Under the pieces are notes generated by a model. That model was not told the origin of the DNA. It did no database searches and was given only the letters and a program-made list of their open reading frames with translations. A program made the position numbers and the translations under genes. 43,115 nucleotides of DNA from a virus: the IMG/VR virus record IMGVR_UViG_3300045988_183476; one strand, given 5' to 3'. Position 1 is the first letter of the stretch. Every line of letters begins with the position of its first letter. Below, one piece after another: positions 1,661 to 43,115 of this stretch.

Positions 1661-1835
1661 AATAAAAAGAGTCAAAAGAGATAATCAAAGTGAACTACCC
1701 ACCACCTAAAGGTAGTGGACTTCTGTTAAATGGTTCACCAGACTAAGCATTCAGAAATGGATACTACGATATTTAGGTCATGATACCCTCGGTTGACGCA
1801 ACAGACCGTCGCTCTATCATACATATTTAACAAAA

Positions 1836-2015
1836 TAATATAAGGATTCCCCTTCCTCAACATCAGTAGGCAGGGGAGGAATTATCTAAAATTCACTAAG
1901 CGTCAGTGGTGGGCGGAGAAAGATTGGTATCCCCCACTGACAAGAGACTTAAGCAACAGTCAGATTTTCCCGATATTCAGGCTCCGTTAAACTTACCGAC
2001 TGTGGATTAAAACAA
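1836..2015 (+). ncRNA. R element, type 1, full length
   Basis: AATATAAGGATTCCCC...GATTAAAACAA; one mismatch in H2 (ACAGTCAG). Confidence 0.6.
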
Positions 2016-3891: not shown

Positions 3892-4004
3892 ATGAGAAAA
3901 AAAATCCATTCATTGCCATCTTATTAACCTTTGTTTTATGTGCTGGAGTTTCTTCTTTAACAAAAAATCTTTTCATAAAATCCGACCGACTGGTAAGAAA
4001 TTAG
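3892..4004 (+). pseudogene. 5' remnant of a lipoprotein/secreted-protein gene, frameshifted in an A8 tract and cut off by repeat modules
   Basis: GGAGA RBS, ATG 3892; adding one A gives MRKKNPFIAILLTFVLCAGVSS (signal/lipobox-like), then runs into the module shared with 30840-30883. Confidence 0.35.
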
Positions 4005-4010
4005 AAATAC

Positions 4011-4070
4011 TTATACAGAAAAATCGAACCAGCCAAATTCCTGACATACTATATATGAAAGGTAGAAGGA
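4011..4070 (+). promoter_or_regulatory. P-module promoter P2
   Basis: TTATACAGAAAAATCGAAC...CATACTATATA, degenerate SD-like GAAAGGTAGAAGG. Confidence 0.45.
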
Positions 4071-4083
4071 TTTTATAAAAAGC

Positions 4084-4249
4084 AAGGATTCTCCTGCCTC
4101 TTTAAGTTGTAGGATGAATTGTAAAATTCATGTAACGTCAGTGGTGGGCGGAGAAGTTGTATCCCCCACTGACAGGAAGTGAAACCCTGCCGGAAGAAAT
4201 GCCGGCATTCAGCCTCCGCATAAAGGATACCGGCTGTAGATTAAAACAA
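4084..4249 (+). ncRNA. R element, type 2, 5' leader of 4305..5270
   Basis: H1 intact, GCGGAG/CUCCGC complementarity, GCCGG/CCGGC helices, tail GATTAAAACAA 4239-4249. Confidence 0.6.
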
Positions 4250-4304
4250 TTTTTATTGATGACAACGATATACCACTTTGATTCATTACTTTGGAGGAAT
4301 TGTT

Positions 4305-5270
4305 ATGGAAAGAGAAAAAATTAAGCTTTCTTTATTTTATCTTATGTTATGCCTCATTATTCTTTTATGTCTGAGTAATAAGGTAATCGCGAAAGAAAAT
4401 ACACCAAATTCTTATAATATACCAACGGATTGCTATTTGAAGGTTACTCCACGAAAGAAAAAAACTGTGTTAACACAATCTTCTACGCCGCAGATTACTG
4501 TCAAGAAGACGACAAAAGTTACAACAAAAAAAGAAAGAATGAAGAAAACGGCAAAGAAAAATTTTTCAAAAACTACAACAAAGACGCGAAAAAGGAAAAA
4601 GGTATCTAAAAATGTTACAGTCTCTACTGTAGTAGAAACGGTAACTGTTACGACAACAAAAATATTGAAAAAAAAAGGCTCTAAGATTAGAACAGTTGTA
4701 AGAAAGACTGTAACAACTGTAAAAACAACTAAAACTACAATAGCTACCAGCAATAATTCTATAAATATAAATAGTTTAGACAGAGGATTTATGATTTCAA
4801 AATTCAGTGATATAAAAGGGCATGTGAATCCTAAAGTTTATAATGCATTTGATGAACTGGGATTTACTTTTAAAATTGATTCACAATTAAAAACAACTGG
4901 AGTATTCAGTATTCAAAATCACTGGATAAAATTAAAAAATGGAAGGTCGGCTTATCTTCTTCATGAGTTGGGACATTTTGTATCTTGTTTGAAAGGAAAA
5001 AATGGCTCAAAAATAGATACATCTTCTGAGTTTGTGCGTATCTATAATACAGAGAAAAATAATTATGTTGGTTATAACAAGGGATATGTGACAAGAACTT
5101 CTTCTGAATTTTTTGCGGAGGCTTTTCGTGATTATACGGACAATCCTATTATTTTAAAAAAATGTTGCCCGCAGACATATGCTTATATGGAGAAAATGGT
5201 AAATTCAATCTCGGCAAATGATATAGTTAATTTCCGGAATAGATATGGATGGTGTTGGACGAAAAATTAG
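4305..5270 (+). CDS. secreted zinc metalloprotease, M34/ATLF-like (Pro-Pro endopeptidase-like) with K/T-rich low-complexity linker
   Basis: GGAGG RBS; N-terminal TM/signal; HELGH followed by SSEFFAEAFRDY (HExxH + E..FAEAF signature). Confidence 0.8.
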   Translation: MEREKIKLSLFYLMLCLIILLCLSNKVIAKENTPNSYNIPTDCYLKVTPRKKKTVLTQSSTPQITVKKTTKVTTKKERMKKTAKKNFSKTTTKTRKRKKVSKNVTVSTVVETVTVTTTKILKKKGSKIRTVVRKTVTTVKTTKTTIATSNNSININSLDRGFMISKFSDIKGHVNPKVYNAFDELGFTFKIDSQLKTTGVFSIQNHWIKLKNGRSAYLLHELGHFVSCLKGKNGSKIDTSSEFVRIYNTEKNNYVGYNKGYVTRTSSEFFAEAFRDYTDNPIILKKCCPQTYAYMEKMVNSISANDIVNFRNRYGWCWTKN

Positions 5271-5555: not shown

Positions 5556-5586
5556 TAGAAGAAAATTTTTGATTCTTATTATTTTT

Positions 5587-5760
5587 CTTCAACATCAGTA
5601 GGTAGGGGAGGAATTATCTAAAATTCACTAAGCGTCAGTGGCGGGCGGAGAGAGATTGGTATCCCCCACTGACAAGAGACTTAAGCAACAGTCGGATTTT
5701 CCCGATATTCAGGCTTCGTTAAACTTACCGACTGTGGATTAAAACAATGATTAAAACAAT
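5587..5760 (+). ncRNA. R element, type 1, 5'-truncated, with tandemly duplicated tail
   Basis: Starts at CTTCAACATCAG; bulge T>C in H1; CUCCG>CUUCG (5716); GATTAAAACAAT twice (5737-5748, 5749-5760). Confidence 0.6.
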
Positions 5761-6718: not shown

Positions 6719-6830
6719 GGAAGGGGCATGTATTTTGTTAACAGAAAATCTTTTTCGTGTTAGATAAAAAATAATTCTATAGAAAAATTAAATACATGAG
6801 ATTTCTTCCATAGATATGAAGAGAAATATT

Positions 6831-6875
6831 AGCATTCAGTCTCCGCATAATAGATACCGGCTGGAAATCAAAACA
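6831..6875 (+). repeat. R element type 2 3' fragment (preceded by degenerate P module 6775-6818)
   Basis: GCATTCAGTCTCCGCATAATAGATACCGGCTGGAAATCAAAACA. Confidence 0.6.
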
Positions 6876-6876
6876 T

Positions 6877-7083
6877 ATTGGTGTTGGAGTTACCTGTGGG
6901 GACAGAGTGATCCTTAAGGATGAACACGAACTTCATTCATTTATCTGCAGCTTTACTGGAACAAGTGTCTACTTGGTGGATAAAAACGGCTGCTATGTAT
7001 CACAGCCCGGAAAAACATATAAACAATGGCCATTATTAAAACTGAAACGGTTACATCCCAATGGTAACTGGCTAATGGCATAA
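6877..7083 (+). pseudogene. start-less ORF remnant abutting the R tail
   Basis: 68 open codons (IGVGVTCGDRVILKDEHEL...NGNWLMA), higher GC than flanks, no ATG/RBS. Confidence 0.3.
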
Positions 7084-8503: not shown

Positions 8504-10174
8504 ATGACAAGAAAAGAGGCTGCGATAAGATATGCCTTAGAAAATGGAGAACTAGATGGTTTAAAGGTCTGGTTACTTAATGGAGGTGACATTGAAGAAT
8601 ACTTTGTAAAAAACAAGAAAAATATTAAAATAACGATTAATGAAAAACAATTTTCCCTATCTGCTAAAGAAGCTGCAGATATTGTGAAAGGAATGATGCC
8701 AATCGAATTTAGCCGGCAGGATTTCGTTAACTTATATTTTAAGTTATCTGAGGAGAAACAGAAAGAATTATACAATGAAGTATTTCCTTATTATCCACAA
8801 GTTATCCGGACTAAAAAGAATCCATCATCGAAAGAAATTTTAGATGCTGTAAAAAGAAAGCATTACATTCACTTTCCAGATAATTTTTACGATATCTTAT
8901 CAGATGAAGATCTGGCAGAATGTCTTTTATACGATGAGAGTATGATGCACGATGTACCAGAAAGTCGTTGGAATTCAGAATTGGCTATTTTGTTTAGTAA
9001 GAAACTAGCGGATAAAGGGGCTTACTATGACAGAATATGCATACCGGAGGAATGCCAAAGTGCTGTATATTGGGAAAATCTTTGTAAGGCAGATGGTTAT
9101 TATTACCGTATTCTGCCAGAAAAATACAAAGATATTCTTTCAGAAGAACTAATTTTGTTTACTCTTAAAAATTCAAAGTCTTATATCGGACCATGCCATC
9201 TATTTGAGACAATCCCCGATGAGTTAAAGACAGCTAAAGTATCTTTGTTGTGCTGCTTAAAGCATTTTGCAGCGATAGAATACTTGCCGAAACGATATCA
9301 GATAGATAAATTTTATGAAATATTATCTGATCATGGACAAAACAGTTTTTTAAATTGTATTCATTTAAACACTATCTCGAAAGAGTTGTTATTAAAATGT
9401 ATCCAGAGAGAAGAAGGAAAATTTGGTGGAAAGATACCTGAAAGTTACTGGGACGAAGAATTAGCTGTTGCGGTTGCGGGGCATACTGACGAGTTAAAAA
9501 TCATCCCTACTGCATGGCGAACAAAAGAAGTTTATAAAACTTTTGTTTCAAAAAGAGGAACAAATATTGAACAGGTTCCTAAAAATGCAATAGATGAAGA
9601 ACTCTGTCTTATTGCGATGGAATCGAATTCTTTTGCTGCTCTGAGATATATCCCAGAAAATATGAAAACAGATTCTTTCTGGGAAAAAGTAATTGATAGA
9701 AACCTGTTTTATAAAGTTTCAGATCTGCCGGAGAAATATCAGGAGCAGGCGTGGACCCCAGAAAAATGCTGTTCCCTTTCCGATATTCCATCAAAATTAA
9801 AGGATGAGGATCATGTGCTCGCTTATCTTGAAACGCGAGGGCATATCTTGCCAAGTGATTTTGAAGAGTTTCAGACTCAAAAAATCATTGATCATGTTAT
9901 GAGCAGGGAACATAATTCGAATTCCAAATTATGGTTATTAAAGTATATAGAGCCTGAATTTAGAAGACGGGCTGATATGCAAGAGGTGCTTACTAATTGT
10001 AAAGATGCTATTTTTCTAAAAAATCTCTCGCAGGATGAAATCAGAGAAAATATTAATGCATTTCCAAAAAATATTCTTTTTGCACCTGATTGGTATAAGG
10101 ATGACATAAAAATACCTGAAAAGTATTTTGAACCAAGACAACAACTTACATTATTTGATTTCATAACAGAATAA
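8504..10174 (+). CDS. DUF4116-type repeat protein
   Basis: AAGGAGG RBS; about 10 repeats of the (I/L)P(E/D)x(Y/W/L)...(E/D)(E/F)(L/W) motif, e.g. IPESYWDEELAVAV, YIPENMKTDSFWEKVI. Confidence 0.85.
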   Translation: MTRKEAAIRYALENGELDGLKVWLLNGGDIEEYFVKNKKNIKITINEKQFSLSAKEAADIVKGMMPIEFSRQDFVNLYFKLSEEKQKELYNEVFPYYPQVIRTKKNPSSKEILDAVKRKHYIHFPDNFYDILSDEDLAECLLYDESMMHDVPESRWNSELAILFSKKLADKGAYYDRICIPEECQSAVYWENLCKADGYYYRILPEKYKDILSEELILFTLKNSKSYIGPCHLFETIPDELKTAKVSLLCCLKHFAAIEYLPKRYQIDKFYEILSDHGQNSFLNCIHLNTISKELLLKCIQREEGKFGGKIPESYWDEELAVAVAGHTDELKIIPTAWRTKEVYKTFVSKRGTNIEQVPKNAIDEELCLIAMESNSFAALRYIPENMKTDSFWEKVIDRNLFYKVSDLPEKYQEQAWTPEKCCSLSDIPSKLKDEDHVLAYLETRGHILPSDFEEFQTQKIIDHVMSREHNSNSKLWLLKYIEPEFRRRADMQEVLTNCKDAIFLKNLSQDEIRENINAFPKNILFAPDWYKDDIKIPEKYFEPRQQLTLFDFITE

Positions 10175-11008: not shown

Positions 11009-12421
11009 ATGAATAAAAACATGGCTACTATATTAAAAGCAGCACAGTATAATATTGTCAATATCAAATGGGATACAGACGGGGATGAAGAATTATTCGC
11101 TTCATTGCCACAGGAAATAGATCTTCCTCTTCAATTCGCTTCCGTTGCGGAAAATGAAGACTATCTTGATGAAATTTCTGATTGGCTTTCTGATGAGTAT
11201 GGGTATTGCAATAATGGCTTTTCTGTTCAAAAAACACATATAGCATATGTGGCTTTTTCCGAGACACAAAAACAATGGATGAACCAGTTATTGCAGATGA
11301 GCAACGCTGAAGTTTACCAGAAATATAGACTAGAGCGAGAAAAAGCTTTGGTATTTACGATATCCTTTGATGACAATATGAAAGTTCAAATGAAATTTGA
11401 CTCAAATTCCTCAGAAATAATCTTGTTTGACAAAGATTTAGAGGTATACCGAGGAAAATGTCAAGAAGGTACATGGAAGGCAAATTATAATGATGTCGTT
11501 TATGTTGTAGAAGACAACAATATGACGGCGAAAAAAGCCGAAGACATTATGGATTTTGCTATTTTTGAAGAGGCAACATCAATAATATACGCTTGGAAGA
11601 TGCATCCAGAAGATATAGAAAAACATATCCCGTATATCTTAAGATATTTGCCGGAAGGATACGACACAGATACACTGTTTGATGTTTTTTCTAAGGTTGA
11701 CAATGAGATTGATATTCCAGTGCGTCTAAAGAATGCAGTTAGTTCAAATACAATAAAAGTAAGATATTCTACCATCAACTGTGAAAATAAAGTAAGAAAA
11801 TGGAATCAGTCGCTGGAAGAAATCTTAAAGAAATGGTGGGCTGAAGACGGAATGGATTTACCTAGTGCGGATGATCCGGTAGTAGAATGCTATATTGATG
11901 AAAACAAACATAAGGTAAATACTTTTAAAGAGCTGATAACAGAACTTAATATTTTGTATTGGTCTAATAAAAGCAATTGTAACCAAAAAGATATTGATTC
12001 AGATTTTGATGTTCAAGTAAAAAGAAAAATTTCGTTAAAAGAATATTTGATGATGCAGTTTAATTATTGCAATGCAATAGCAATAGATATTCTGGAGCAT
12101 AACAAATCTAAAAAAATTCAGGAATATGTAAAGCAGTTTGTTCAGATTGAAAGTTCTGTAGCAGATGGAACAGATGTTGATTGGATTCGTATCAATTGGG
12201 GAGATATTTATATCTTCTTGTATGATAACGGAAGTATTCGTTATCAATTAGACCCACATAATGGTTATGGTAATGAACTTATTGATACTTTTGAAAGAGG
12301 TAGATTTACAGCGGAGATATTAACATTAGAAGAAGCACCTGTCGCTAGAAATGGTGTTTTATATTACGAAGAAGAAACCGGTTATCCAGATGATGTACCG
12401 ATGTACATTCCAATGAGATAA
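11009..12421 (+). CDS. hypothetical protein with N-terminal acidic KWDTDG...DWLSDEYGYC domain
   Basis: 470-aa ORF; no SD near the ATG (see finding); N-terminal about 60 aa duplicated at 13019-13195. Confidence 0.75.
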   Translation: MNKNMATILKAAQYNIVNIKWDTDGDEELFASLPQEIDLPLQFASVAENEDYLDEISDWLSDEYGYCNNGFSVQKTHIAYVAFSETQKQWMNQLLQMSNAEVYQKYRLEREKALVFTISFDDNMKVQMKFDSNSSEIILFDKDLEVYRGKCQEGTWKANYNDVVYVVEDNNMTAKKAEDIMDFAIFEEATSIIYAWKMHPEDIEKHIPYILRYLPEGYDTDTLFDVFSKVDNEIDIPVRLKNAVSSNTIKVRYSTINCENKVRKWNQSLEEILKKWWAEDGMDLPSADDPVVECYIDENKHKVNTFKELITELNILYWSNKSNCNQKDIDSDFDVQVKRKISLKEYLMMQFNYCNAIAIDILEHNKSKKIQEYVKQFVQIESSVADGTDVDWIRINWGDIYIFLYDNGSIRYQLDPHNGYGNELIDTFERGRFTAEILTLEEAPVARNGVLYYEEETGYPDDVPMYIPMR

Positions 12422-12440
12422 TTAACAAAGGAGAAATATT

Positions 12441-13001
12441 ATGTTAAAAGAAATCAAGAAGGAATCTGACGTTATTACAAATCAGGACTTATTTAATGAG
12501 ATCATTAAAAAAGTTAAAAAATCTGATAAATGGCCGTCCAATATTATAGACTATGAACTGGAAGACCGTTATGAAACAGGACTTTATAATTATGAGTTTA
12601 CCTTGAATCCTGTATTCACTCTGCAGCCAGGCAGTAATGAAGGATATTATCTAAGCCTTTATATCAGAGGATACTATGGTTTAACGGATAAGTTTGATTT
12701 TGTCTCGTTAGGGACAATCAAGACTCTGCTTACAGATAAGGAGAATATTCGACAGATGGCTGCTCTTTATGGGGAGTGTCTAATCGCTTATGAAGAAATC
12801 ATGAATGATGAACTGGATAAATTTACAAGAAAAGGGTATAACCTATTTCTGGTAGATGAAGAAGGAAAAATGCGTCATTGTCTCTCTGAGCTTTCAAGTA
12901 AAGAAAAAGCAATAGAAAGATTTAAACTGTGTTCTGTAAAATATCGCAAGGGTGTCGTAAGGGACAATCTGACGAGAAAAGAGTTTGTATTATCAAAGTA
13001 A
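12441..13001 (+). CDS. hypothetical protein, paralog B1
   Basis: AAGGAGA RBS; close paralog of 13296..13868. Confidence 0.8.
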   Translation: MLKEIKKESDVITNQDLFNEIIKKVKKSDKWPSNIIDYELEDRYETGLYNYEFTLNPVFTLQPGSNEGYYLSLYIRGYYGLTDKFDFVSLGTIKTLLTDKENIRQMAALYGECLIAYEEIMNDELDKFTRKGYNLFLVDEEGKMRHCLSELSSKEKAIERFKLCSVKYRKGVVRDNLTRKEFVLSK

Positions 13002-13018
13002 AACAGCATCAAAAAACT

Positions 13019-13204
13019 ATTGTCAATATCAAATGGGATACAGACGGGGATGAAGAATTATTTACTTCATTGCTACAGGAAATAGATCTTCCTCTTCAAT
13101 TTGCTTCCGTTGCGGAAGATGAAGACTATCTTGATGAGATTTCTGATTGGCTTTCTGATGAGTATGGGTATTGCAATAATGGCTTTTCTGTTCAAGTTAG
13201 ATAA
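13019..13204 (+). pseudogene. start-less duplicate of the N-terminal KWDTDG domain of 11009..12421
   Basis: 13019-13195 nearly identical to 11054-11230; no start codon of its own; ends TAA 13202-13204. Confidence 0.55.
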
Positions 13205-13210
13205 AAAATA

Positions 13211-13262
13211 TTTCTACAGAAAAATCGAATAAGCAAGATTTTTGCCATCCTATATAGAAAAG
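13211..13262 (+). promoter_or_regulatory. P-module promoter P3 (degenerate -10 CATCCTATATA)
   Basis: TTCTACAGAAAAATCGAATAAGCAAGATTTTTGCCATCCTATATAG. Confidence 0.4.
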
Positions 13263-13295
13263 GTATACCGATGAAATAACAAAAGGAGAAAGATT

Positions 13296-13868
13296 ATGTT
13301 GAAAGAGATTAAAAAAGAAAAAGATGTAATCACGAATCAGGACTTATTTAATGAGATCATTAAAAAAGTTAAAAAATCTGATAAATGGCCGTCCAGTATT
13401 ATAGACTATGAACTGGAAGACCATTATGAAACAGGACTTTATAATTATGAGTTTAATCCTGTATTCACTCTGCAGCCAGGCAGTAATGAAGGATATTATC
13501 TAAGCCTTTATATTAGAGGATACTATGGTTTAACGGATAAGTTTGATCTTGTCTCGTTAGGGACAATCAAGACTCTGCTTACAGATAAGGAGAGTATTCG
13601 ACAGATGGCTGCTCTTTATGGGGAGTGTCTAATCGCTTATGAAGAAATCATGAATGATGAACTGGATAAATTTACAAGAAAAGGGTATGACCTATTTCTG
13701 GTAGATAAGGAAGAAAAAATGCATCCTTATCTTTCTGGACTTTCAAGTAAGGAAAAAGCAATGGAAAGATTTAAGTTGTACCATGAAAAAAATTCGGAAC
13801 AGTATCTAAAAGGAGTCGTAAGGGATAATTTAACACGAAAAGAATTTGTTTTCTGGGCTTTCAGGTAA
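13296..13868 (+). CDS. hypothetical protein, paralog B2
   Basis: AAGGAGA RBS; paralog of 12441..13001 with a rearranged C-terminus. Confidence 0.8.
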   Translation: MLKEIKKEKDVITNQDLFNEIIKKVKKSDKWPSSIIDYELEDHYETGLYNYEFNPVFTLQPGSNEGYYLSLYIRGYYGLTDKFDLVSLGTIKTLLTDKESIRQMAALYGECLIAYEEIMNDELDKFTRKGYDLFLVDKEEKMHPYLSGLSSKEKAMERFKLYHEKNSEQYLKGVVRDNLTRKEFVFWAFR

Positions 13869-13960
13869 GGAAAAAGTATACATAGATATGCAATCATTGG
13901 CCACTACATTTCTACAAATTCATACTGTGAGTATCAGACTGGTTTAACAAAAAATCTTTT

Positions 13961-14067
13961 ATTCGTGTAACGTCAGTGGTGGGCGGCTGACATGAAGTTA
14001 ATCCCTGCCGGAAGAAATACCGGCATTCAGCCTCTGCATAAAGGATGCAGGCTGTGGATTAAAACAA
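13961..14067 (+). repeat. R element type 2, decayed (H0 missing, H1 collapsed)
   Basis: GTCAGTGGTGGGCGG-CTGAC deletion; CUCCG>CUCUG; tail GATTAAAACAA 14057-14067. Confidence 0.6.
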
Positions 14068-14099
14068 GTTTGAGCCACTTAATTGTACTTGCAAAAAAC

Positions 14100-14770: not shown

Positions 14771-14793
14771 TGATGAATTGCTCCGTAAAATAA

Positions 14794-14838
14794 TTATACA
14801 GAAAAATTGAATGCATGAGATTTCTGTTATACTATATA
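14794..14838 (+). promoter_or_regulatory. P-module promoter P4 (best match to a sigma-A-like layout)
   Basis: -35 TTGAAT 14807-14812, 17-nt spacer, -10 TACTAT 14830-14835; the downstream AAAGGAGG here is the real RBS of 14858. Confidence 0.55.
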
Positions 14839-14857
14839 GAAAAGGAGGACAGACTTT

Positions 14858-15274
14858 ATGAATGTAGATCCAAAGCAAATCAATAATTTGATAAAAATTT
14901 TTTGTGAACTAGACGAAGAATACAGAGGGAAAGCTCTTATGGAAATGAATGGACTGTTTTTTGAGTATATGAATGAGCAAGATTGCAAAAGAAATAATAT
15001 CCCTGTGACGCAAGAGGCAAAACGTAATTTTATTGCTGACACAAAAGAATTTGCAGAACTTCTTTCTGAGTTATCTAAAACACAAAAAGCATCTATAGTA
15101 ATGTATATGGAACATTTGAGTCCAGGGAGTTTTACAGAAGAAAACGAACTAGAAATTAAAATCAATCATAGGAAAATCACTTTGAGAGAATACATCGAAA
15201 AGTATCTTCCAGATGCAGATGTGGGAGAAGCAAAAGAAATATATAGGGAATTTGGAACATATGCGAAAAATTAG
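14858..15274 (+). CDS. hypothetical protein (138 aa)
   Basis: AAAGGAGG RBS, ATG. Confidence 0.8.
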   Translation: MNVDPKQINNLIKIFCELDEEYRGKALMEMNGLFFEYMNEQDCKRNNIPVTQEAKRNFIADTKEFAELLSELSKTQKASIVMYMEHLSPGSFTEENELEIKINHRKITLREYIEKYLPDADVGEAKEIYREFGTYAKN

Positions 15275-15491: not shown

Positions 15492-16562
15492 ATGGGAGAA
15501 ATTTTTAATTTAGATGATATGATAAAAAAAGAAATGAAAGGATTCAAAAAGGACGAGAATTCATCAGCAAAACCATCTGAATACCTAAGAGAGTATGCAG
15601 ATACTTTACAGGAACTGGCAGAAATCATTCGGTCATATTTGGATATAGCAGACGAATATCTCCAAGATATGATTGGTCAAACTAAACTTGATTATCGAGA
15701 TTTTTGCATTGAAGAAGACGATATTGAAGTATTTCTTGAAAGTATAACAGATAGCAATTTAGCTCCTGTTATATATATGAATCATGCGGCAGATGGAAAA
15801 GTATACCGAGCGACCATTTGCTTACTGGAGACCAGTGAAGAATTTGTTGATGTAAAAGGATCATTAGAGATGTATGATAGTAAAAAAGTATTTGCATTTG
15901 ATTTTGATTCTAATACATGGATACTTGCTGCGGAGGATAAATTATCAGATACAATGCAGAAAATCCTTAATTCGAATTCTTTAGAAAGTCATATTTTACA
16001 GGAAATTATTTTAGCAACAAATGGCAGACTAGATGAAAAGAAATATGCTGCCATTAAGAAAAATTATGCTCCTCTTTTTGCTTTGTATAATCAGGTGCAT
16101 AATTACATGATTCCAGTATGCGAACTGGATAATACAGGGAAAAGATGCTCTCTTTATCTCGAACCAAGAGATCCGTTCCGCATAGGATTTCGTATAGGAT
16201 ATGAAAAAAATATGTATGTTCTTTATCAATATCTTGATCCTTTTGATTTTTCAGAAGACGAAGAATTATGGATAACGAATGGGAAAGAACCAGAGATCTA
16301 TTTAAAAGAAATAGATAGAATATCAGATTGTAAGTCGGTAGTAAAACAGTTATGTTCTATGGCAAATCGTTATGCCGATGATCTGATTTTTACAGTTCCG
16401 TTATCATTTGAGTGCTTTACTGAAACAAGTAATGTAAAAAAGATCGGAAAAAGAATTTACTTTACAAGCGGAGAAGATAGAGAGTTGTCTGAAAAAGAAA
16501 AGAAAAATTTAGCAGGATTAAAAGGCGTGGTTAGTAGTTTTCAGCGAATGGTATTTAAATAA
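15492..16562 (+). CDS. hypothetical protein (356 aa)
   Basis: AAAGGAG RBS; the stop codon lies in the first bases of the R element. Confidence 0.8.
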   Translation: MGEIFNLDDMIKKEMKGFKKDENSSAKPSEYLREYADTLQELAEIIRSYLDIADEYLQDMIGQTKLDYRDFCIEEDDIEVFLESITDSNLAPVIYMNHAADGKVYRATICLLETSEEFVDVKGSLEMYDSKKVFAFDFDSNTWILAAEDKLSDTMQKILNSNSLESHILQEIILATNGRLDEKKYAAIKKNYAPLFALYNQVHNYMIPVCELDNTGKRCSLYLEPRDPFRIGFRIGYEKNMYVLYQYLDPFDFSEDEELWITNGKEPEIYLKEIDRISDCKSVVKQLCSMANRYADDLIFTVPLSFECFTETSNVKKIGKRIYFTSGEDRELSEKEKKNLAGLKGVVSSFQRMVFK

Positions 16563-16745
16563 TATTAAGGTTCGCATTCCCCTTCCTCAACATCAGTAGG
16601 TAGGGGAGGAATTATCTAAAATTCACTAAGCGTCAGTGGTGGGCGGAGAGAGATTGGTATCCCCCATTGACAAGAGACTTAAGCAACAGTCGGATTTTCC
16701 CGATATTCAGGCTCCGTTAAACTTACCGACTGTGGATTAAAACAA
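16561..16745 (+). ncRNA. R element, type 1, full length (exemplar), between convergent genes
   Basis: H0 16576-16612, H1 16632-16671 (C>T at 16667 gives G-U), H2 16686-16733, CGGAG 16644-16648 vs CUCCG 16712-16716, tail 16734-16745. Confidence 0.65.
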
Positions 16746-16913
16746 TTCACTTTTTCTTTTTAACCACACCTATTTAGCCGTCTTCTTATGGGTGTGGTTA
16801 TTCTATCAGCTTAGGCAGAGTACCACGTCCATAGGAGCTATGCATCGCATAGGCGCGGAGGCTTCATTACGATAGATTCAAACTTTTAACAGAGAACAAC
16901 TCTAGTTATTTCA

Positions 16914-17747
16914 TTATAAAAAATCCATCAAAGATTTAAACTCTATATTCCGTTTTAGCTTTTTAAAGGCTATATTTTTAATCTGATATACCCTCTGATG
17001 GGTAAATCCCATTTTTTCTCCTATTTCTCTGCCGCTTAAAACTTCTTTTCCATTTAATCCATATAATTGTTCAATTACAAAAAGCTCATTTTCAGATAGA
17101 ATTTTCCTAAGTAGAATGGATACTCTTTTTTTCATATCCTTATTACAGACATAATTTTCAATATTTCTATCAGATGGAATTAGATTTCCTAATGTTATAT
17201 TCTCTTCCTGCTCTGTTATGGCTTCTTTATCCAGTGATAAACATTGTTGGTTCCAGTCCGTTAATACATATTCAAGAAGAACCCCTCTATACCCTGTACT
17301 TTTCTTTATCTCCTCCATTGTTGGTTTCCTGTTATATAAAAGATAATATTCCCGACAAAGTTGCTCTATTTTCTTTCTGGCTTCTGCGATACGAAAGGGA
17401 CGTATTATCATTTCTGAGGAGTTTGCAAATTCTCGGATATATTTTTTTATCCATGGAGTAGCATATGTAGAAAAGGCTGTCTGATAGGATAACTCAAATC
17501 GGCCAAGAGCTTCAATAAGCCCTTTAATTCCTTCATGAAAAAGGTCAGCAATATCTATACCAGGACATCCAAAAGAAAATTTCTGAGCAATTCTTAATAC
17601 AAGGCCTGCATTGGAAAGAATAATTTTGTCATGAATTAAATTGTCTCCTGTTTTTTTATATTCTAATATCAGTTTGTCTAAATCCTTTTTTGTGAGTACA
17701 GGGTTGTTTTTTATAATGTCATATATATAATATTCAGATTCGTACAT
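16914..17747 (-). CDS. sigma-70 family RNA polymerase sigma factor (regions 2, 3, 4)
   Basis: DLFHEGIKGLIEALGRFE / FSTYATPWIKKYI (region 2), REIGEKMGFTHQRVYQIKNIAFKKL (region 4 HTH); GAGGTGGA RBS. Confidence 0.85.
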   Translation of the reverse strand: MYESEYYIYDIIKNNPVLTKKDLDKLILEYKKTGDNLIHDKIILSNAGLVLRIAQKFSFGCPGIDIADLFHEGIKGLIEALGRFELSYQTAFSTYATPWIKKYIREFANSSEMIIRPFRIAEARKKIEQLCREYYLLYNRKPTMEEIKKSTGYRGVLLEYVLTDWNQQCLSLDKEAITEQEENITLGNLIPSDRNIENYVCNKDMKKRVSILLRKILSENELFVIEQLYGLNGKEVLSGREIGEKMGFTHQRVYQIKNIAFKKLKRNIEFKSLMDFL

Positions 17748-23693: not shown

Positions 23694-23756
23694 CATACTA
23701 CCTTTGAAACAAATCTATTGATGAGAAGGAGGAATAAAATTATCAATCATTGTTTC
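23694..23756 (+). promoter_or_regulatory. leader module c
   Basis: CATACTAC then GAAACAA/TTGTTTC stem, loop GAGAAGGAGGAATAAAA. Confidence 0.55.
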
Positions 23757-23813
23757 TGAAAATAAAGATATGTATTTGAAAAATAGCATATCAGTCGTTA
23801 TTTTATAATGTTT

Positions 23814-23827
23814 GCAGATTAAAACAA
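23814..23827 (+). repeat. isolated R tail GCAGATTAAAACAA fused directly to the RBS of 23839
   Basis: 14-nt match to the R 3' end, followed by AAGGAG. Confidence 0.4.
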
Positions 23828-30836: not shown

Positions 30837-30883
30837 AACATCTTTTCATAAAATCCGACCGACTGGCAAGAAATTAGAAATAC

Positions 30884-30930
30884 TTATACAGAAAAATCAG
30901 ATAAGTAAGGTTTCTGTCATACTATATAAG
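30884..30930 (+). promoter_or_regulatory. P-module promoter P6
   Basis: -35-like TCAGAT 30897-30902, 17-nt spacer, -10 TACTAT 30920-30925, then AAGGGAGG. Confidence 0.5.
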
Positions 30931-31029
30931 AAGGGAGGATAAGCTTTATTCGCTCAATTAACAGAGCAGGAGGAATTTGAGGCTTTATCTGATGTGATTA
31001 TTGCAAACAAACGGAGAGGAGTGGAGACA

Positions 31030-31689: not shown

Positions 31690-31756
31690 AAAATCATTTT
31701 ATTATTGGATAAATTTATTGACGAATAGGAGGTATGAAAAGATAGTCATTATCCAA
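31690..31756 (+). promoter_or_regulatory. leader module e
   Basis: TTGGATAA/TTATCCAA lower stem, ATTTAT bulge, TGAC/GTCA, loop GAATAGGAGGTATGAAAA. Confidence 0.55.
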
Positions 31757-33198: not shown

Positions 33199-33268
33199 AA
33201 TCTCATATTACTATTAGACAAATTTATTGACGAAAAGGAGGAAGTGAAAGATTTAGTCATTGTCCTAA
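33199..33268 (+). promoter_or_regulatory. leader module f
   Basis: CTCATATTACTAT then TTAGACAA/TTGTCCTAA, ATTTAT bulge, TGAC/GTCA, loop GAAAAGGAGGAAGTGAAA. Confidence 0.55.
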
Positions 33269-37420: not shown

Positions 37421-37533
37421 TACAAAAATTTATTCTCATATCTTATACTGCCCTCTCTTTTTAGTTATTTGTATTTACATTCTATCATTATATTTATGTA
37501 ATCATTAATCTACAGATGAAAAGGAGGAATTAT

Positions 37534-37770
37534 ATGATGCAGATGGATTTAGACTTAAACACATTAATGCAGAAGGCTTATGAAATAAGGAGACAATTTC
37601 CTATTGGAAGCCGTGTACGACTAATCAGAATGGATGGGAAATATCTGCCTATCGGTTCAGAAGGAACTGTGACAGGAGTAGATGATATAGGCACTATCCA
37701 TGTTAGATGGGATTGTGGTTCATCTTTAGGTGTTGTGTATCCAGAAGATAAGTGCGAAATTATTTATTAG
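37534..37770 (+). CDS. DUF4314 domain protein
   Basis: AAAGGAGG RBS; RVRLIRMDGKYLPIGSEGTVTGVDDIGTIHVRWDCGSSLGVVYPEDK. Confidence 0.85.
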   Translation: MMQMDLDLNTLMQKAYEIRRQFPIGSRVRLIRMDGKYLPIGSEGTVTGVDDIGTIHVRWDCGSSLGVVYPEDKCEIIY

Positions 37771-39833: not shown

Positions 39834-39862
39834 AGGTTATGTCAGTGGTGGGCGGAGAAACG
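39830..39862 (+). repeat. R element type 2 fragment with an internal deletion
   Basis: CTTTAGGTTATG-TCAGTGGTGGGCGGAGAAACG matches 248-309 minus about 26 nt. Confidence 0.5.
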
Positions 39863-39893
39863 TTACCATGCTCCTCTGTTTTATCCCTAAAAT

Positions 39894-41251: not shown

Positions 41252-41638
41252 ATGACATTATATGAATAGTTTGCTGAATATACCAGTGGTAATGATATCT
41301 TTGAAAATGATGATGACAAAGAATCAGTGCTTACAGTCGTTAATCTATATGCAGACCATCCTGAACTGGGGATTAAAACAATCAACCATTCATCAAATCG
41401 ACACTGTGATCTCTATAAAAAGTTTTATAATAAATACCCGCCCGGCGACGGAATCCGCCGGAGAAAGAAGGAAAATATGACAGCAGAAGAAAGAAACAAG
41501 TACATAGAGTTTATGTACGATTATAAAAATGAATATAATTGTGAAAATTGCCCGGAAAACAGAGACAATTTTCCACATGACAAATTACCTTGCGGACAAC
41601 AAAATTGCTGGGTAACCTGTCATTGCAAGGAGATGTAA
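41252..41638 (+). pseudogene. gene with an in-frame TAG at codon 6 (41267-41269); alternatively only the Cys-rich 54-aa part 41477..41638 is expressed
   Basis: AAAGGAG RBS + ATG 41252 is in frame with ORF 41327..41638; a second RBS-like GAAGGAAAA sits before the ATG at 41477. Confidence 0.45.
41435..41469 (+). repeat. GC-rich hairpin repeat copy 1
   Basis: CCGGCGA CGGAAT CCGCCGG then AGAAAGAA. Confidence 0.6.
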
Positions 41639-42310: not shown

Positions 42311-42982
42311 ATGCATTTACAAAAAGATATTATGAATATTTTGGATAAAACTGGTTTCAATTGTGTTGAACCAACAAGTGAAAAAGGGAAATATAATATT
42401 TACATTAATAGCCGCACTCCATTCAACAGTGATTTTGGGTTTTATGTAGTATATGATGGCTCTTTCCAAAGTTTTAAAAAAGCTGTAAGTAAGATTTGTT
42501 ATGCTTTTGACATTGATAAAGATGCAGAGAAACGGATTCCGATAAGAGGATCTGCCAGCATTCAGACAGTTTTGGATGAATCTAAGTGGAAAAAAGAAAA
42601 ATTAGATGAGTTGTTAGCTGCATTTGAAACATATATAACGGAAGCAACTTTTACATTTACTGTATCAAAGTTAGCAGGGTATATTGTTGATTCAATATGT
42701 AAAAAGTATATTACAGAGTATGATTTTACGGTTTTAGATGATGTAGAACCTCAAATATCCAGTTGGTATGGCATAAAAAATATTAATACTGGGTTTAATA
42801 GTTCTTGTATTGAACTGTTTGCTGACTATTATGGTGGCGGTTGCGGAGTTTATAATCGAATTGATGAGGAAATGGACAGGGAAGAAAGAGTAGATATTAT
42901 AGAAAAGATGATATTGCAGGTTATGGAACAAGAAGTATGTGATAAAGACACAAAACTTCTAGTCCAGCTTTCATCAAAATAA
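42311..42982 (+). CDS. hypothetical protein (223 aa), paralog of 41748..42296 N-domain
   Basis: AAAGGAG RBS before the ATG at 42311; TGFNCVEP...YNIYI...VYDGSFQSFKKAV...FDIDKD..RIP; the stop lies in the first bases of the R element. Confidence 0.8.
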   Translation: MHLQKDIMNILDKTGFNCVEPTSEKGKYNIYINSRTPFNSDFGFYVVYDGSFQSFKKAVSKICYAFDIDKDAEKRIPIRGSASIQTVLDESKWKKEKLDELLAAFETYITEATFTFTVSKLAGYIVDSICKKYITEYDFTVLDDVEPQISSWYGIKNINTGFNSSCIELFADYYGGGCGVYNRIDEEMDREERVDIIEKMILQVMEQEVCDKDTKLLVQLSSK

Positions 42983-43115
42983 TATAAGGATTCCCCTTCC
43001 TCAACATCAGTAGGTAGGGGAGGAATTATCTAAAATTCACTAAGCGTCAGTGGTGGGCGGAGAGAGATTGGTATCCCCCACTGACAAGAGACTTAAGCAA
43101 CAGTCGGATTTTCCC
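42977..43115 (+). ncRNA. R element, type 1, 5' part (continues at 97..140 if circular)
   Basis: AAAATAATATAAGGATTCCCC...; 43020-43115 identical to 1-96. Confidence 0.6.

Follow-up and report, generated by a model that had tools for sequence, protein, structure and literature searches.

Palindrome-associated transposable elements (PATEs) of the IS200/IS605 insertion sequence (IS) family, described for example in Geobacillus stearothermophilus (Meers et al., bioRxiv 10.1101/2023.03.14.532601), carry no gene, are about 0.2 kb in length and occur in one orientation. They have subterminal top-strand hairpins and no inverted ends, produce no target duplication, and have a left end in common with a TnpB-encoding IS. 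Published transposon-adjacent motifs (TAMs) of IS200/IS605 elements are TTCAT and TTTAT, the transposon-encoded motif (TEM) is TTCAC, donor joints are scarless, and alternative right-end boundaries capture flanking DNA (bioRxiv 10.1101/2023.03.14.532601). A second type of small mobile sequence is the RNA anti-CRISPR (Racr) or solitary repeat unit, e.g., RacrIC1 (Camara-Wilpert et al. 2023, PMC10651486). Here a mobile element carries one hairpin that resembles a CRISPR repeat, together with its handle; the unit is located away from cas genes and other repeats, and is often behind a regulatory or promoter-like module. Solitary repeats, including the type I-C unit RacrIC1, inhibit CRISPR-Cas (PMC10651486). 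The sequence analyzed here, termed R, is a repeated element of approximately 185 nt in the viral record IMGVR_UViG_3300045988_183476, a 43,115-nt stretch of DNA that is referred to as the window; the copy at positions 16560-16745 is the focus copy.

R is like PATEs in its size, lack of genes, single orientation, top-strand hairpins, left end, and absence of inverted ends and target duplication, and is inserted 3' of the TAM-like pentanucleotides TTCAA, TTTAA or TTCAT. Unlike in PATEs, the right end resembles a type I-C CRISPR repeat and is not the right end or omega RNA of a parent IS; R also has two extra internal hairpins under strong structural selection, and many diverged subtypes that include old single chromosomal copies. 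R shares with Racr the solitary hairpin plus handle, the distance from cas genes and the position behind a regulatory module, and its repeat family is also present as stand-alone units with a terminator in the gut phage contigs L255, L220 and L232. It differs from Racr in that the repeat is embedded in a structured transposable unit of ~185 nt, the loop of its hairpin is larger than usual and complementary to a second loop, and an element holds at least 12 copies where Racr has one. Viral CRISPR mini-arrays and crRNA-like (CRISPR RNA-like) anti-defence RNAs (PMC11656645; bioRxiv 10.1101/2024.10.29.618823) are similar in that a mobile element supplies the repeat RNA and borrows the host Cas proteins; they have dedicated spacers between two repeats, whereas R has one repeat and the flank of its insertion site takes the place of the spacer. 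We read R as a PATE-like, non-autonomous IS200/IS605 element of ~185 nt with an I-C repeat mimic, which would make it a mobile, multi-copy RNA anti-CRISPR; the probability of this reading is put at about one in two.

The focus copy (variant 1b, + strand) is 186 nt, begins with TAATATTAAGGTTCGC and ends with GGATTAAAACAA. It starts at the stop codon of the open reading frame (ORF) at 15492-16562 and closes an operon; a terminator-like hairpin and then a convergent gene are located downstream. H0, the left-end subterminal hairpin (16576-16612; ATTCCCCTTCCTC / GGTAGGGGAGGAAT), has a homolog in the hairpin at the left end of an IS605-family element that encodes TnpB. Hairpin H1 (16632-16671; GTCAGTGGTGGG / CCCCCATTGAC) has invariant CGGAG and GGUAUC sequences in the loop. 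It is followed by a short variable hairpin, A:B (16689-16704; GTCGG / CCGAT), which displays covariation. The type I-C repeat look-alike (16706-16743) consists of hairpin M:C (CAGGC...GACTG, 16708-16732), which has the enlarged loop, and an 11-nt tail, UGGAUUAAAAC (16733-16743). The terminal AA (16744-16745), together with the preceding AAC, forms the TTCAA-like right-end motif AACAA. All of these features are on the + strand.

A covariance-model scan of the window with filters off shows strong + strand copies of R with cores at 7-143, 265-399, 1882-2018, 4117-4252, 5614-5750, 13952-14070, 16612-16748 and 43026-43115, and a 3' fragment at 6773-6879. This gives 8-9 substantial copies, all on the + strand; the same scan produced no strong minus-strand copy, and a repeat search of the window found the R families as direct repeats only. 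Refined boundaries of the full element are 1831-2015, 16560-16745, 42975 to the end, 224-396 and 4077-4249, where those of type 2 and type 3 copies were drawn from a comparison of the D5 modules that precede them (see below) and not from empty sites. R has stop codons in all three frames of the four copies checked, i.e., it has no coding capacity. The copies split into at least two subtypes, and the tail GGATTAAAACAA is the best conserved portion. The original prediction, made from the window sequence alone, had described a multi-copy element on the + strand, with stops in every frame, diverged subtypes and a conserved tail, and it was accurate on each of these points.

Secondary structure is conserved between the copies. 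In the R1 core alignment (model R1 has 122 matches, 84 distinct rows), 90.5% of the cells are paired and there are compensatory changes at 17 of the 22 pairs; none of 500 shuffles reaches the core score, and sliding of the pairing partners leaves 28-50% paired. H1 is paired in 96.6% of cells, with compensatory changes at 8/11 pairs. The A:B hairpin is paired in 78% (covariation at 6/6 pairs), M:C in 92% (3/5 pairs), and H0 plus an outer (A/G)CAA...UUG(U/C) helix in 85.9%, with compensatory change at six pairs. Four helices, H0, H1, A:B and M:C, are thus supported by compensatory change. H0 and H1 had been proposed in the original prediction, and both are found. The third helix proposed there, H2 (ACAGTCGG/CCGACTGT, in which arm A of A:B is paired with arm C of M:C), is 75% paired and is retained as an alternative that is best in type 1, but the fold of the family as a whole has A:B and M:C. 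A closing helix suggested by RNAalifold, AAUUC/GGAUU (AAUU/GAUU), was rejected; it is 78% paired, with no covariation.

The H1 loop sequence CGGAG is complementary to CUCCG in 94% of cells, and there is a second loop-loop complementarity, GGUAU/AUACC, in 89%. Neither shows covariation because the H1 loop never varies, and the two pairings are compatible with the alignment but not confirmed by it. Of the kissing interaction or pseudoknot that had been suggested between the H1 and H2 loops, it is therefore the complementarity that stands. The joint loss of H1 and CUCCG that had been noted in the copy at 13961-14067 does not argue for such a contact, as many relatives have CUCUG although their H1 is intact. 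Wobble pairs exceed A-C mismatches by 93 to 35 in the core and by 63 to 17 in H0; therefore the + strand is the folding strand. The G-C to G-U changes that had been cited in favor of an RNA (16667 C>T and 5716 C>T) are present, but IS200/IS605 elements transpose top-strand single-stranded DNA (ssDNA), which is the same strand as the sense RNA, and the wobble bias cannot tell RNA from DNA. The folding energy of the focus copy is unexceptional (z of -1.2, minus strand -0.8). Support for the fold comes from the comparison between copies and not from the stability of a single copy.

Comparison of flanks of all copies across loci revealed two independent pairs of filled and empty alleles with identical element ends. 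One involves the type 1 copy that is truncated by the window end (42975-43115, +), whose site is empty in contigs L176 and L013. The empty allele has CTTTCAT joined directly to ATTAAATT, and the filled allele is CTTTCAT(CAAAATAATATAAGGATTCCCC...CTGTGGATTAAAACAA)ATTAAATT, with the inserted element bounded by CAAAATAATATAAGG...GGATTAAAACAA. In the second pair, CCTTCAA is joined to TGCGTATC in the empty allele and the filled allele has the same inserted ends. In both pairs the insertion is precise, ~185 nt, without target duplication and without inverted ends. Fifteen independent left flanks (11 from the locus comparison, the others from chromosomal copies) are TTCAA in six cases, TTTAA in four, GACAA in two, and CTCAA, GATAA and TTCAT in one each; type 2 and type 3 copies come after TTTAT. 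The 3' terminus is AACAA. H0 is 15-16 nt from the 5' end and M:C is 13 nt from the 3' end, both as top-strand hairpins. At the sequence level, these insertion features match the published behavior of IS200/IS605 elements.

A possible source of the left end is also present. A sister contig has a 1357-bp insertion after TTGAA that encodes a protein with OrfB_IS605/TnpB domains. The left end of this IS, CAATACTAAGGTGCGCATTCCCCTTCCTCAACGAAGTAGGCAGGGG, can be aligned to R over the left end and H0, most closely to variant 1b, the variant of the focus copy. Judged by this alignment, the left end of R (~15 nt plus H0) is that of an IS605-family element that encodes TnpB and resides in the same gut Lachnospiraceae mobile element. 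In contig L024 a copy of R abuts the right end of the TnpB IS (...GCCCCTTCCTCTATAGGAAGGGGTAGTTCAC followed by TAATATTAAGGTTCGC, where the IS itself ends in ...CCCCTTCCTCTATAGGAAGGGGTAGTTCAC), and the right-end hairpin of that IS has the stem CCCCTTCC, the same as H0. Empty and filled sites, a TAM-like motif and left-end homology to a TnpB IS are thus in line with the earlier suggestion of an IS200/IS605-like PATE whose strand bias explains the single orientation. The TnpB-only element of 1357 bp is polymorphic among sister contigs (L175:17369-18725, L210, L010:12517-13509, L024:10350-10520). Its right end finishes with ...GTAGTTCAC, and there are two right-end hairpin variants that have different stems at the same position. 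A Y1 transposase gene (PF01797) is present in sister contig L176; by tblastn, TnpB was found only at positions unrelated to R, and Y1 only in L176. The Y1 gene adjoins a 467-aa minus-strand gene (PF27142) in variable cargo downstream of R (L176:4742-6721). The window counterpart of this region (39841-39865) has been deleted from inside R.

The last ~40 nt of R consist of a hairpin followed by UGGAUU(A/G)AAAC, and these are colinear end to end with type I-C repeats. R modules align from the first to the last base with real I-C repeats and have a loop that is 5-10 nt longer. The Hungatella copy ends in GTCGCACTCTGTGAAATTATCGAGCGTGGATTGAAAC; aligned with R are the I-C repeat of B. halodurans, GTCGCACTCTACATGAGTGCGTGGATTGAAAT, and an I-C-type repeat from Roseburia hominis of the Lachnospiraceae, GTCGCTCCCTGTGAGGGGAGCGTGGATTGAAAT. 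In a lax Rfam search, the only matches of the Hungatella copy are to two CRISPR-DR families, which cover exactly M:C plus the tail and are weak (E of 0.12 for CRISPR-DR9 and 9.3). A metagenome scan of at least 120 loci detected true arrays with the same ends as the R module, e.g., L330 with ~35 copies of GATTCAGCCGCTCTTCGGAGCGGCTGTGGATTGAAAC. The R tail variants GGATTGAAAC, GGATTAAAAC and GAGTTGAAAC are each found in I-C-typed repeats of the Racr supplement (PMC10651486). The supplement lists I-C-typed units ending in GTGGATTAAAAC and GCGGATTAAAAC, and also CGTCAGCCTCTTCGTGAGGCTGTGAGTTGAAAT, whose tail is the variant seen in R from Ruminococcus (CTGTGAGTTGAAAC). Therefore, three tail variants of the R lineages all exist in real I-C repeats. 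The module is solitary, with no second tail or repeat downstream of R at any window copy. Truncated copies of R keep exactly the 3' repeat-like module, behind regulatory modules. The SRUFinder program accepts a BLAST match to a typed repeat with at least 90% coverage and a bit score of at least 41.1 (PMC10651486); R would probably fail the 90% coverage criterion because of the enlarged loop.

A motif scan of viral contigs also revealed stand-alone phage repeat units that align with the R module, e.g., GTCAGTCGCATTTTGCGACTGTGGATTGAAAC and GTCAGCCGGGCCGTTCCCGGCTGTGGATTGAAAC. Such I-C-like units are present in gut phage contigs L255:3110-3142, L220, L232/L256/L257/L263 and L243/L245/L248/L261/L238. 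Where the downstream sequence was read (L255, L220, L232, L256, L257 and L263), the unit is followed by a terminator, and in L220 and L255 there is a promoter-like stretch upstream. Some units have a GC-rich upstream structure of ~100 nt that offers an alternative pairing with the repeat stem. These stand-alone units are candidate RNA anti-CRISPRs. In addition, L218:~8800-8950 (minus strand) and L240 contain a phage mini-array in which an I-C-like repeat and a degenerate second one enclose a spacer of ~34 nt; a near-duplicate of this spacer and a terminator come next.

The data on the two ends bear on a simpler explanation, that R is a plain PATE with no RNA function, where the helices are top-strand ssDNA signals or hitch-hikers and the I-C-like end is a captured relic. 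The filled and empty sites, the insertion motif and the left-end homology all agree with it; the + strand fold suits ssDNA as well as RNA, and foreign sequence can be captured via alternative right-end boundaries. Yet H1 and A:B are not terminal and still have the strongest covariation, the tail variants of R track distinct real I-C repeat variants, truncated and immobile copies keep the repeat module behind regulatory modules, and the related stand-alone units with a terminator (in L220 and L255 also with a promoter-like stretch) look like RNA genes. A plain PATE is accordingly considered unlikely on balance.

The I-C-like solitary repeat, together with the known inhibition of CRISPR-Cas by solitary repeats, is the basis for reading R as a transposable RNA anti-CRISPR. 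Transcribed copies would probably either serve as RNA decoys that counter the host CRISPR defence or hijack it. Y1 TnpA provided in trans would excise and insert the top strand of R as ssDNA, directly 3' of a TTCAA/TTTAA/TTCAT-type motif and without target duplication. Motif-directed insertion of ssDNA would result in a single orientation relative to replication and hence relative to most genes. Because of this co-orientation and the frequent position behind a repeated regulatory module, R would be transcribed as a leader or by read-through. Each transcript would present one solitary I-C repeat. Cas5d is known to cut at the base of the repeat stem, which yields an 11-nt tag; in R, Cas5c (Cas5d) may bind the repeat and cut at the 3' base of the stem, between CUG and UGGAUUAAAAC, also with an 11-nt tag. 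R transcripts may then titrate or mis-assemble Cascade subunits in the manner of Racr. The H1 loop, complementary to the enlarged loop of the repeat hairpin, could lock or stabilize the decoy, and H1 may dock onto that loop. As to origin, an IS left end probably captured a phage repeat-decoy gene, and the AACAA that comes after the repeat would have served as a surrogate right boundary.

Several observations weigh against the interpretation of R as a mobile RNA anti-CRISPR. The repeat-like stem has only 5-6 bp and its loop is 5-10 nt longer than in real repeats, which makes recognition by Cas5c putative. No window copy has a CRISPR-DR match in Rfam at E<=10; the lax scan of single window copies and L046 copies at this threshold gave nothing relevant, neither CRISPR-DR nor HEARO. 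The right-end hairpin of R is unlike H0 and unlike the right end of the TnpB IS, so that recognition of R by the same TnpA is only inferred. The conservation of H1 and A:B is explained neither by transposition nor by simple repeat mimicry. Lastly, there are single chromosomal copies beside housekeeping genes in Hungatella, Ruminococcus, Blautia and a rumen metagenome-assembled genome, which is odd for an anti-CRISPR and expected for a transposon.

The register of the repeat relative to the insertion site suggests a further explanation, in which host CRISPR brings about homing. With the C of AACAA as the last base of the repeat, a transcript processed by Cas5c would consist of the 11-nt handle plus 'AA + right flank', and this could serve as a crRNA in the host I-C Cascade. 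An empty allele would offer TTC, as protospacer-adjacent motif (PAM), followed by AA+flank as protospacer, and the filled allele, in which AAC precedes AA+flank, would have no PAM. Cas3 attack on R-free alleles would drive retention and spread of R like a gene drive, with no nuclease gene of its own; a borrowed Cascade-Cas3 would replace an omega RNA with TnpB/IscB, and the same RNA would also dilute crRNA loading. The exact register fits this well, since TTCAA is the commonest insertion motif and TTC is reported in PMC8406640 as the 5' PAM of a type I-C system. Two positions distinguish the right-end motif from the insertion motif, as published for TnpB self-avoidance, the second empty site (CCTTCAA followed by TGCG) is a perfect PAM plus protospacer, and the best conserved portion of R is the tail adjoining the variable flank. 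However, TTC-AA is present at only ~6 of 15 sites, the others including TTTAA, GACAA, GATAA and TTCAT, and types 2 and 3 come after TTTAT. There is no downstream repeat to supply a 3' handle, degradation by Cas3 is destructive, loading of a single-repeat transcript into I-C Cascade is presupposed, and the PAM/TAM overlap may be coincidence. Homing therefore appears distinctly unlikely.

The right end of R can also be compared with TnpB omega RNA or reRNA (Karvelis 2021, PMC8612924; Meers 2023). The likenesses are a structured RNA at the right end of a transposon with its 3' end adjoining a possible guide flank, and a right-end motif that is two positions off the insertion motif. The differences are that R has no adjoining nuclease gene and no omega-RNA sequence or Rfam similarity, and that its putative effector would be the host Cascade-Cas3. 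That R is an omega-RNA scaffold, used by TnpB or IscB acting in trans and guided by the 3' flank, is suggested by its location at a transposon right end next to variable flanks, by the TnpB elements in sister contigs and by a HEARO-like RNA beside one copy. This seems very improbable: the R core has no similarity to the co-resident TnpB IS in its right end or omega region, no copy is adjacent to tnpB or iscB, the HEARO-like stretch is at one site only, and the 3' module instead matches Cas5c-type repeats. The orphan guide-RNA-like scaffold of the original prediction was close in spirit, but what the 3' module resembles is a type I-C CRISPR repeat and not an omega or bridge RNA, and no TnpB, IscB or IS110 gene is located next to any R copy.

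The HEARO-like (RF02033) stretch at 1690-1885 (+) is a full-length match below threshold; it scores 58.6 bits (E 7e-10), where the gathering score is 83. There is no IscB ORF downstream, and its 3' part runs into H0 of the type 1 copy (1831-2015, +), which was inserted after ATTTAA (between 1830 and 1831) on the 3' side of this IscB omega RNA-like sequence. It looks like an orphan omega-RNA remnant. A HEARO/IscB link to R was considered and rejected; the stretch 1660-1840 has no relative in any fetched locus, and being unique to one site, it is not a part of R.

About 100 distinct relatives of R, some of them in Lachnospiraceae genomes, are known from this work; they were found by pattern scans and profile search in human-gut IMG/VR contigs, gut metagenome assemblies, Blautia, Ruminococcus sp. 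AF41-9, Hungatella hathewayi and a rumen bacterium; in the pattern scan of the genome collection, chance matches in GC-rich genomes dominated the matches listed. BLAST gave no match of R to plasmids and, among phages, matches to five unannotated gut 'Bacteriophage sp.' contigs; the Hungatella 3' module had only chance-level matches to plasmids. The genes flanking R are present in hundreds of human-gut metagenome assemblies, where R is abundant. At least 12 copies are spread over ~70 kb of one 102-kb contig, some of them beyond the window. The mobile element that holds R is largely unannotated by Pfam and PHROGs (window proteins tested), and no Cas, capsid or type IV secretion system domains were detected in a scan of 24 different window ORFs, roughly half of the ORFs listed. 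Neighboring genes are co-oriented with R at 74 of 81 downstream ORFs and 66 of 70 upstream ORFs. Reversed copies are few, and each sits among reversed genes.

Old, diverged single copies are found at L140 (the Hungatella hathewayi DSM 13479 chromosome, ~4.5946 Mb), L119, L088, L072 and L060. In L119, R is the entire 5' untranslated region of pheS, where a T-box would be expected. Another chromosomal copy is between cbiC-like and pdxK-like genes, and at another the reading frame of a YitT-like membrane protein gene extends into H0.

Such locations raise the possibility of a cis-acting mRNA leader that processes, stabilizes or antiterminates for the downstream gene, e.g., through a 5' end defined by Cas5c or a host RNase. 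Copies are indeed in 5' leaders or between co-oriented genes, R makes up the whole leader of pheS in L119, and a Shine-Dalgarno (SD)-like GGAGG stretch is before many copies. However, the downstream genes are mutually unrelated, some copies end operons (e.g., 16560-16745), empty alleles exist with the genes intact, and no leader or ribozyme family of Rfam is matched; a leader function is quite improbable. Nothing but position favors the processive antitermination or stability element that had been listed as a candidate. At the gathering score, Rfam 15 has no match in the window, including ribozymes, riboswitches and leaders, and the self-cleaving or processing RNA also proposed finds no family there. 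Conserved loops, a possible pseudoknot and multiple copies in mobile DNA would suit a new self-cleaving ribozyme or riboswitch. Against this are the Rfam result and the heterogeneous downstream genes; transposon-like boundaries and repeat mimicry already account for the conservation, and this explanation is extremely improbable.

The other window copies, all on the + strand, show various stages of integrity. The type 1 copy at 1-140 is truncated by the window start and has a complete counterpart at L179:9473-9667. Two type 2 copies are behind D5 modules: 224-396 begins right after ...TTTAT of the module and is upstream of a BspA-like leucine-rich repeat gene (477-1562), and 4077-4249 is upstream of an ATLF-like protease gene (4278-5270). 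In a third type 2 copy, 13946-14067, most of H1 is internally deleted and H0 is absent. In the type 1 copy at 5560-5759, C>T changes have made the 5' arm of H0 degenerate, and the 12-nt tail is tandemly duplicated at 5737-5759; here the element terminus GATTAAAACAAT occurs twice, which may be a footprint of end processing. The fragment at 6831-6876 has only the repeat-like 3' module left (CATTCAGTCTCCGC...GGCTGGAAATCAAAACA), behind a D7/D5-type module. A degenerate 3' module at 23790-23827 (ATCAGTCGTTATTTTATAATGTTTGCAGATTAAAACAA) is just upstream of the gene at 23812/23840. At 39841-39865 there is a remnant with the 5' half of H1; the deletion begins within R, and L175 and L176 have a complete copy and then different cargo. 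A weak model match (20 bits) at 41260-41384 (+) is within ORF 41327-41638 and has CTGGGGATTAAAACAA as coding sequence; either the match is due to chance or a gene has taken up an old copy. The two window ends share an exact 96-nt overlap. A circular 43-kb replicon was considered and rejected, as contigs of 52-314 kb with window proteins run through both ends; the overlap is due to R copies at both ends and not to circularity.

The D5/D7 modules form a repeat family of ~80 nt at 151-229, 4002-4080, 6754-6811, 13203-13281, 14785-14863 and 30875-30953. In each, the inverted repeat ACAGAAA...TTTCTGT is followed by CATACTATATAG and an SD-like GGAGG, and the module is directly before a start codon or a type 2 R copy. 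The promoters earlier assigned upstream of R correspond to this module, on which a scan for the sigma-70 consensus makes no call; the element encodes a sigma factor of its own (16914-17747, minus strand), for which D5 may hence serve as operator or promoter. A short upstream module, AATTTATTGACGAAAAGGAGG, with a TTGACG-containing motif beside an SD, precedes four right-half genes (23712-23743, 31712-31743, 33221-33252 and 37507-37538). The window also has a recent segmental duplication, 12420-12889 versus 13275-13738 and 11053-11230 versus 13018-13195. The duplication gives paralogous genes of 186 and 190 aa (12441-13001 and 13296-13868), and one copy is absent in sister contigs L172 and L173.

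No description of a CRISPR-repeat-bearing PATE was found in the literature searched, which included a review from 2024 on mobile elements with CRISPR components; the literature searches also gave nothing on the CRISPR types of Hungatella. An I-C-like repeat with an enlarged loop, embedded in a PATE-like element, appears not to have been described before. If R is a transposable RNA anti-CRISPR, repeat decoys would spread within and between mobile elements as selfish units, with about a dozen copies per element, and searches for decoys would have to change, as filters tuned to intact repeats would miss those like R. If homing were true, no other transposon would be known so far that recruits a class 1 CRISPR system of its host as a maintenance nuclease, and R would be a natural counterpart of the TnpB/IscB logic and of CRISPR-associated transposons. 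Either way, the R family represents a compact, covariation-supported fold that is built around an I-C repeat.

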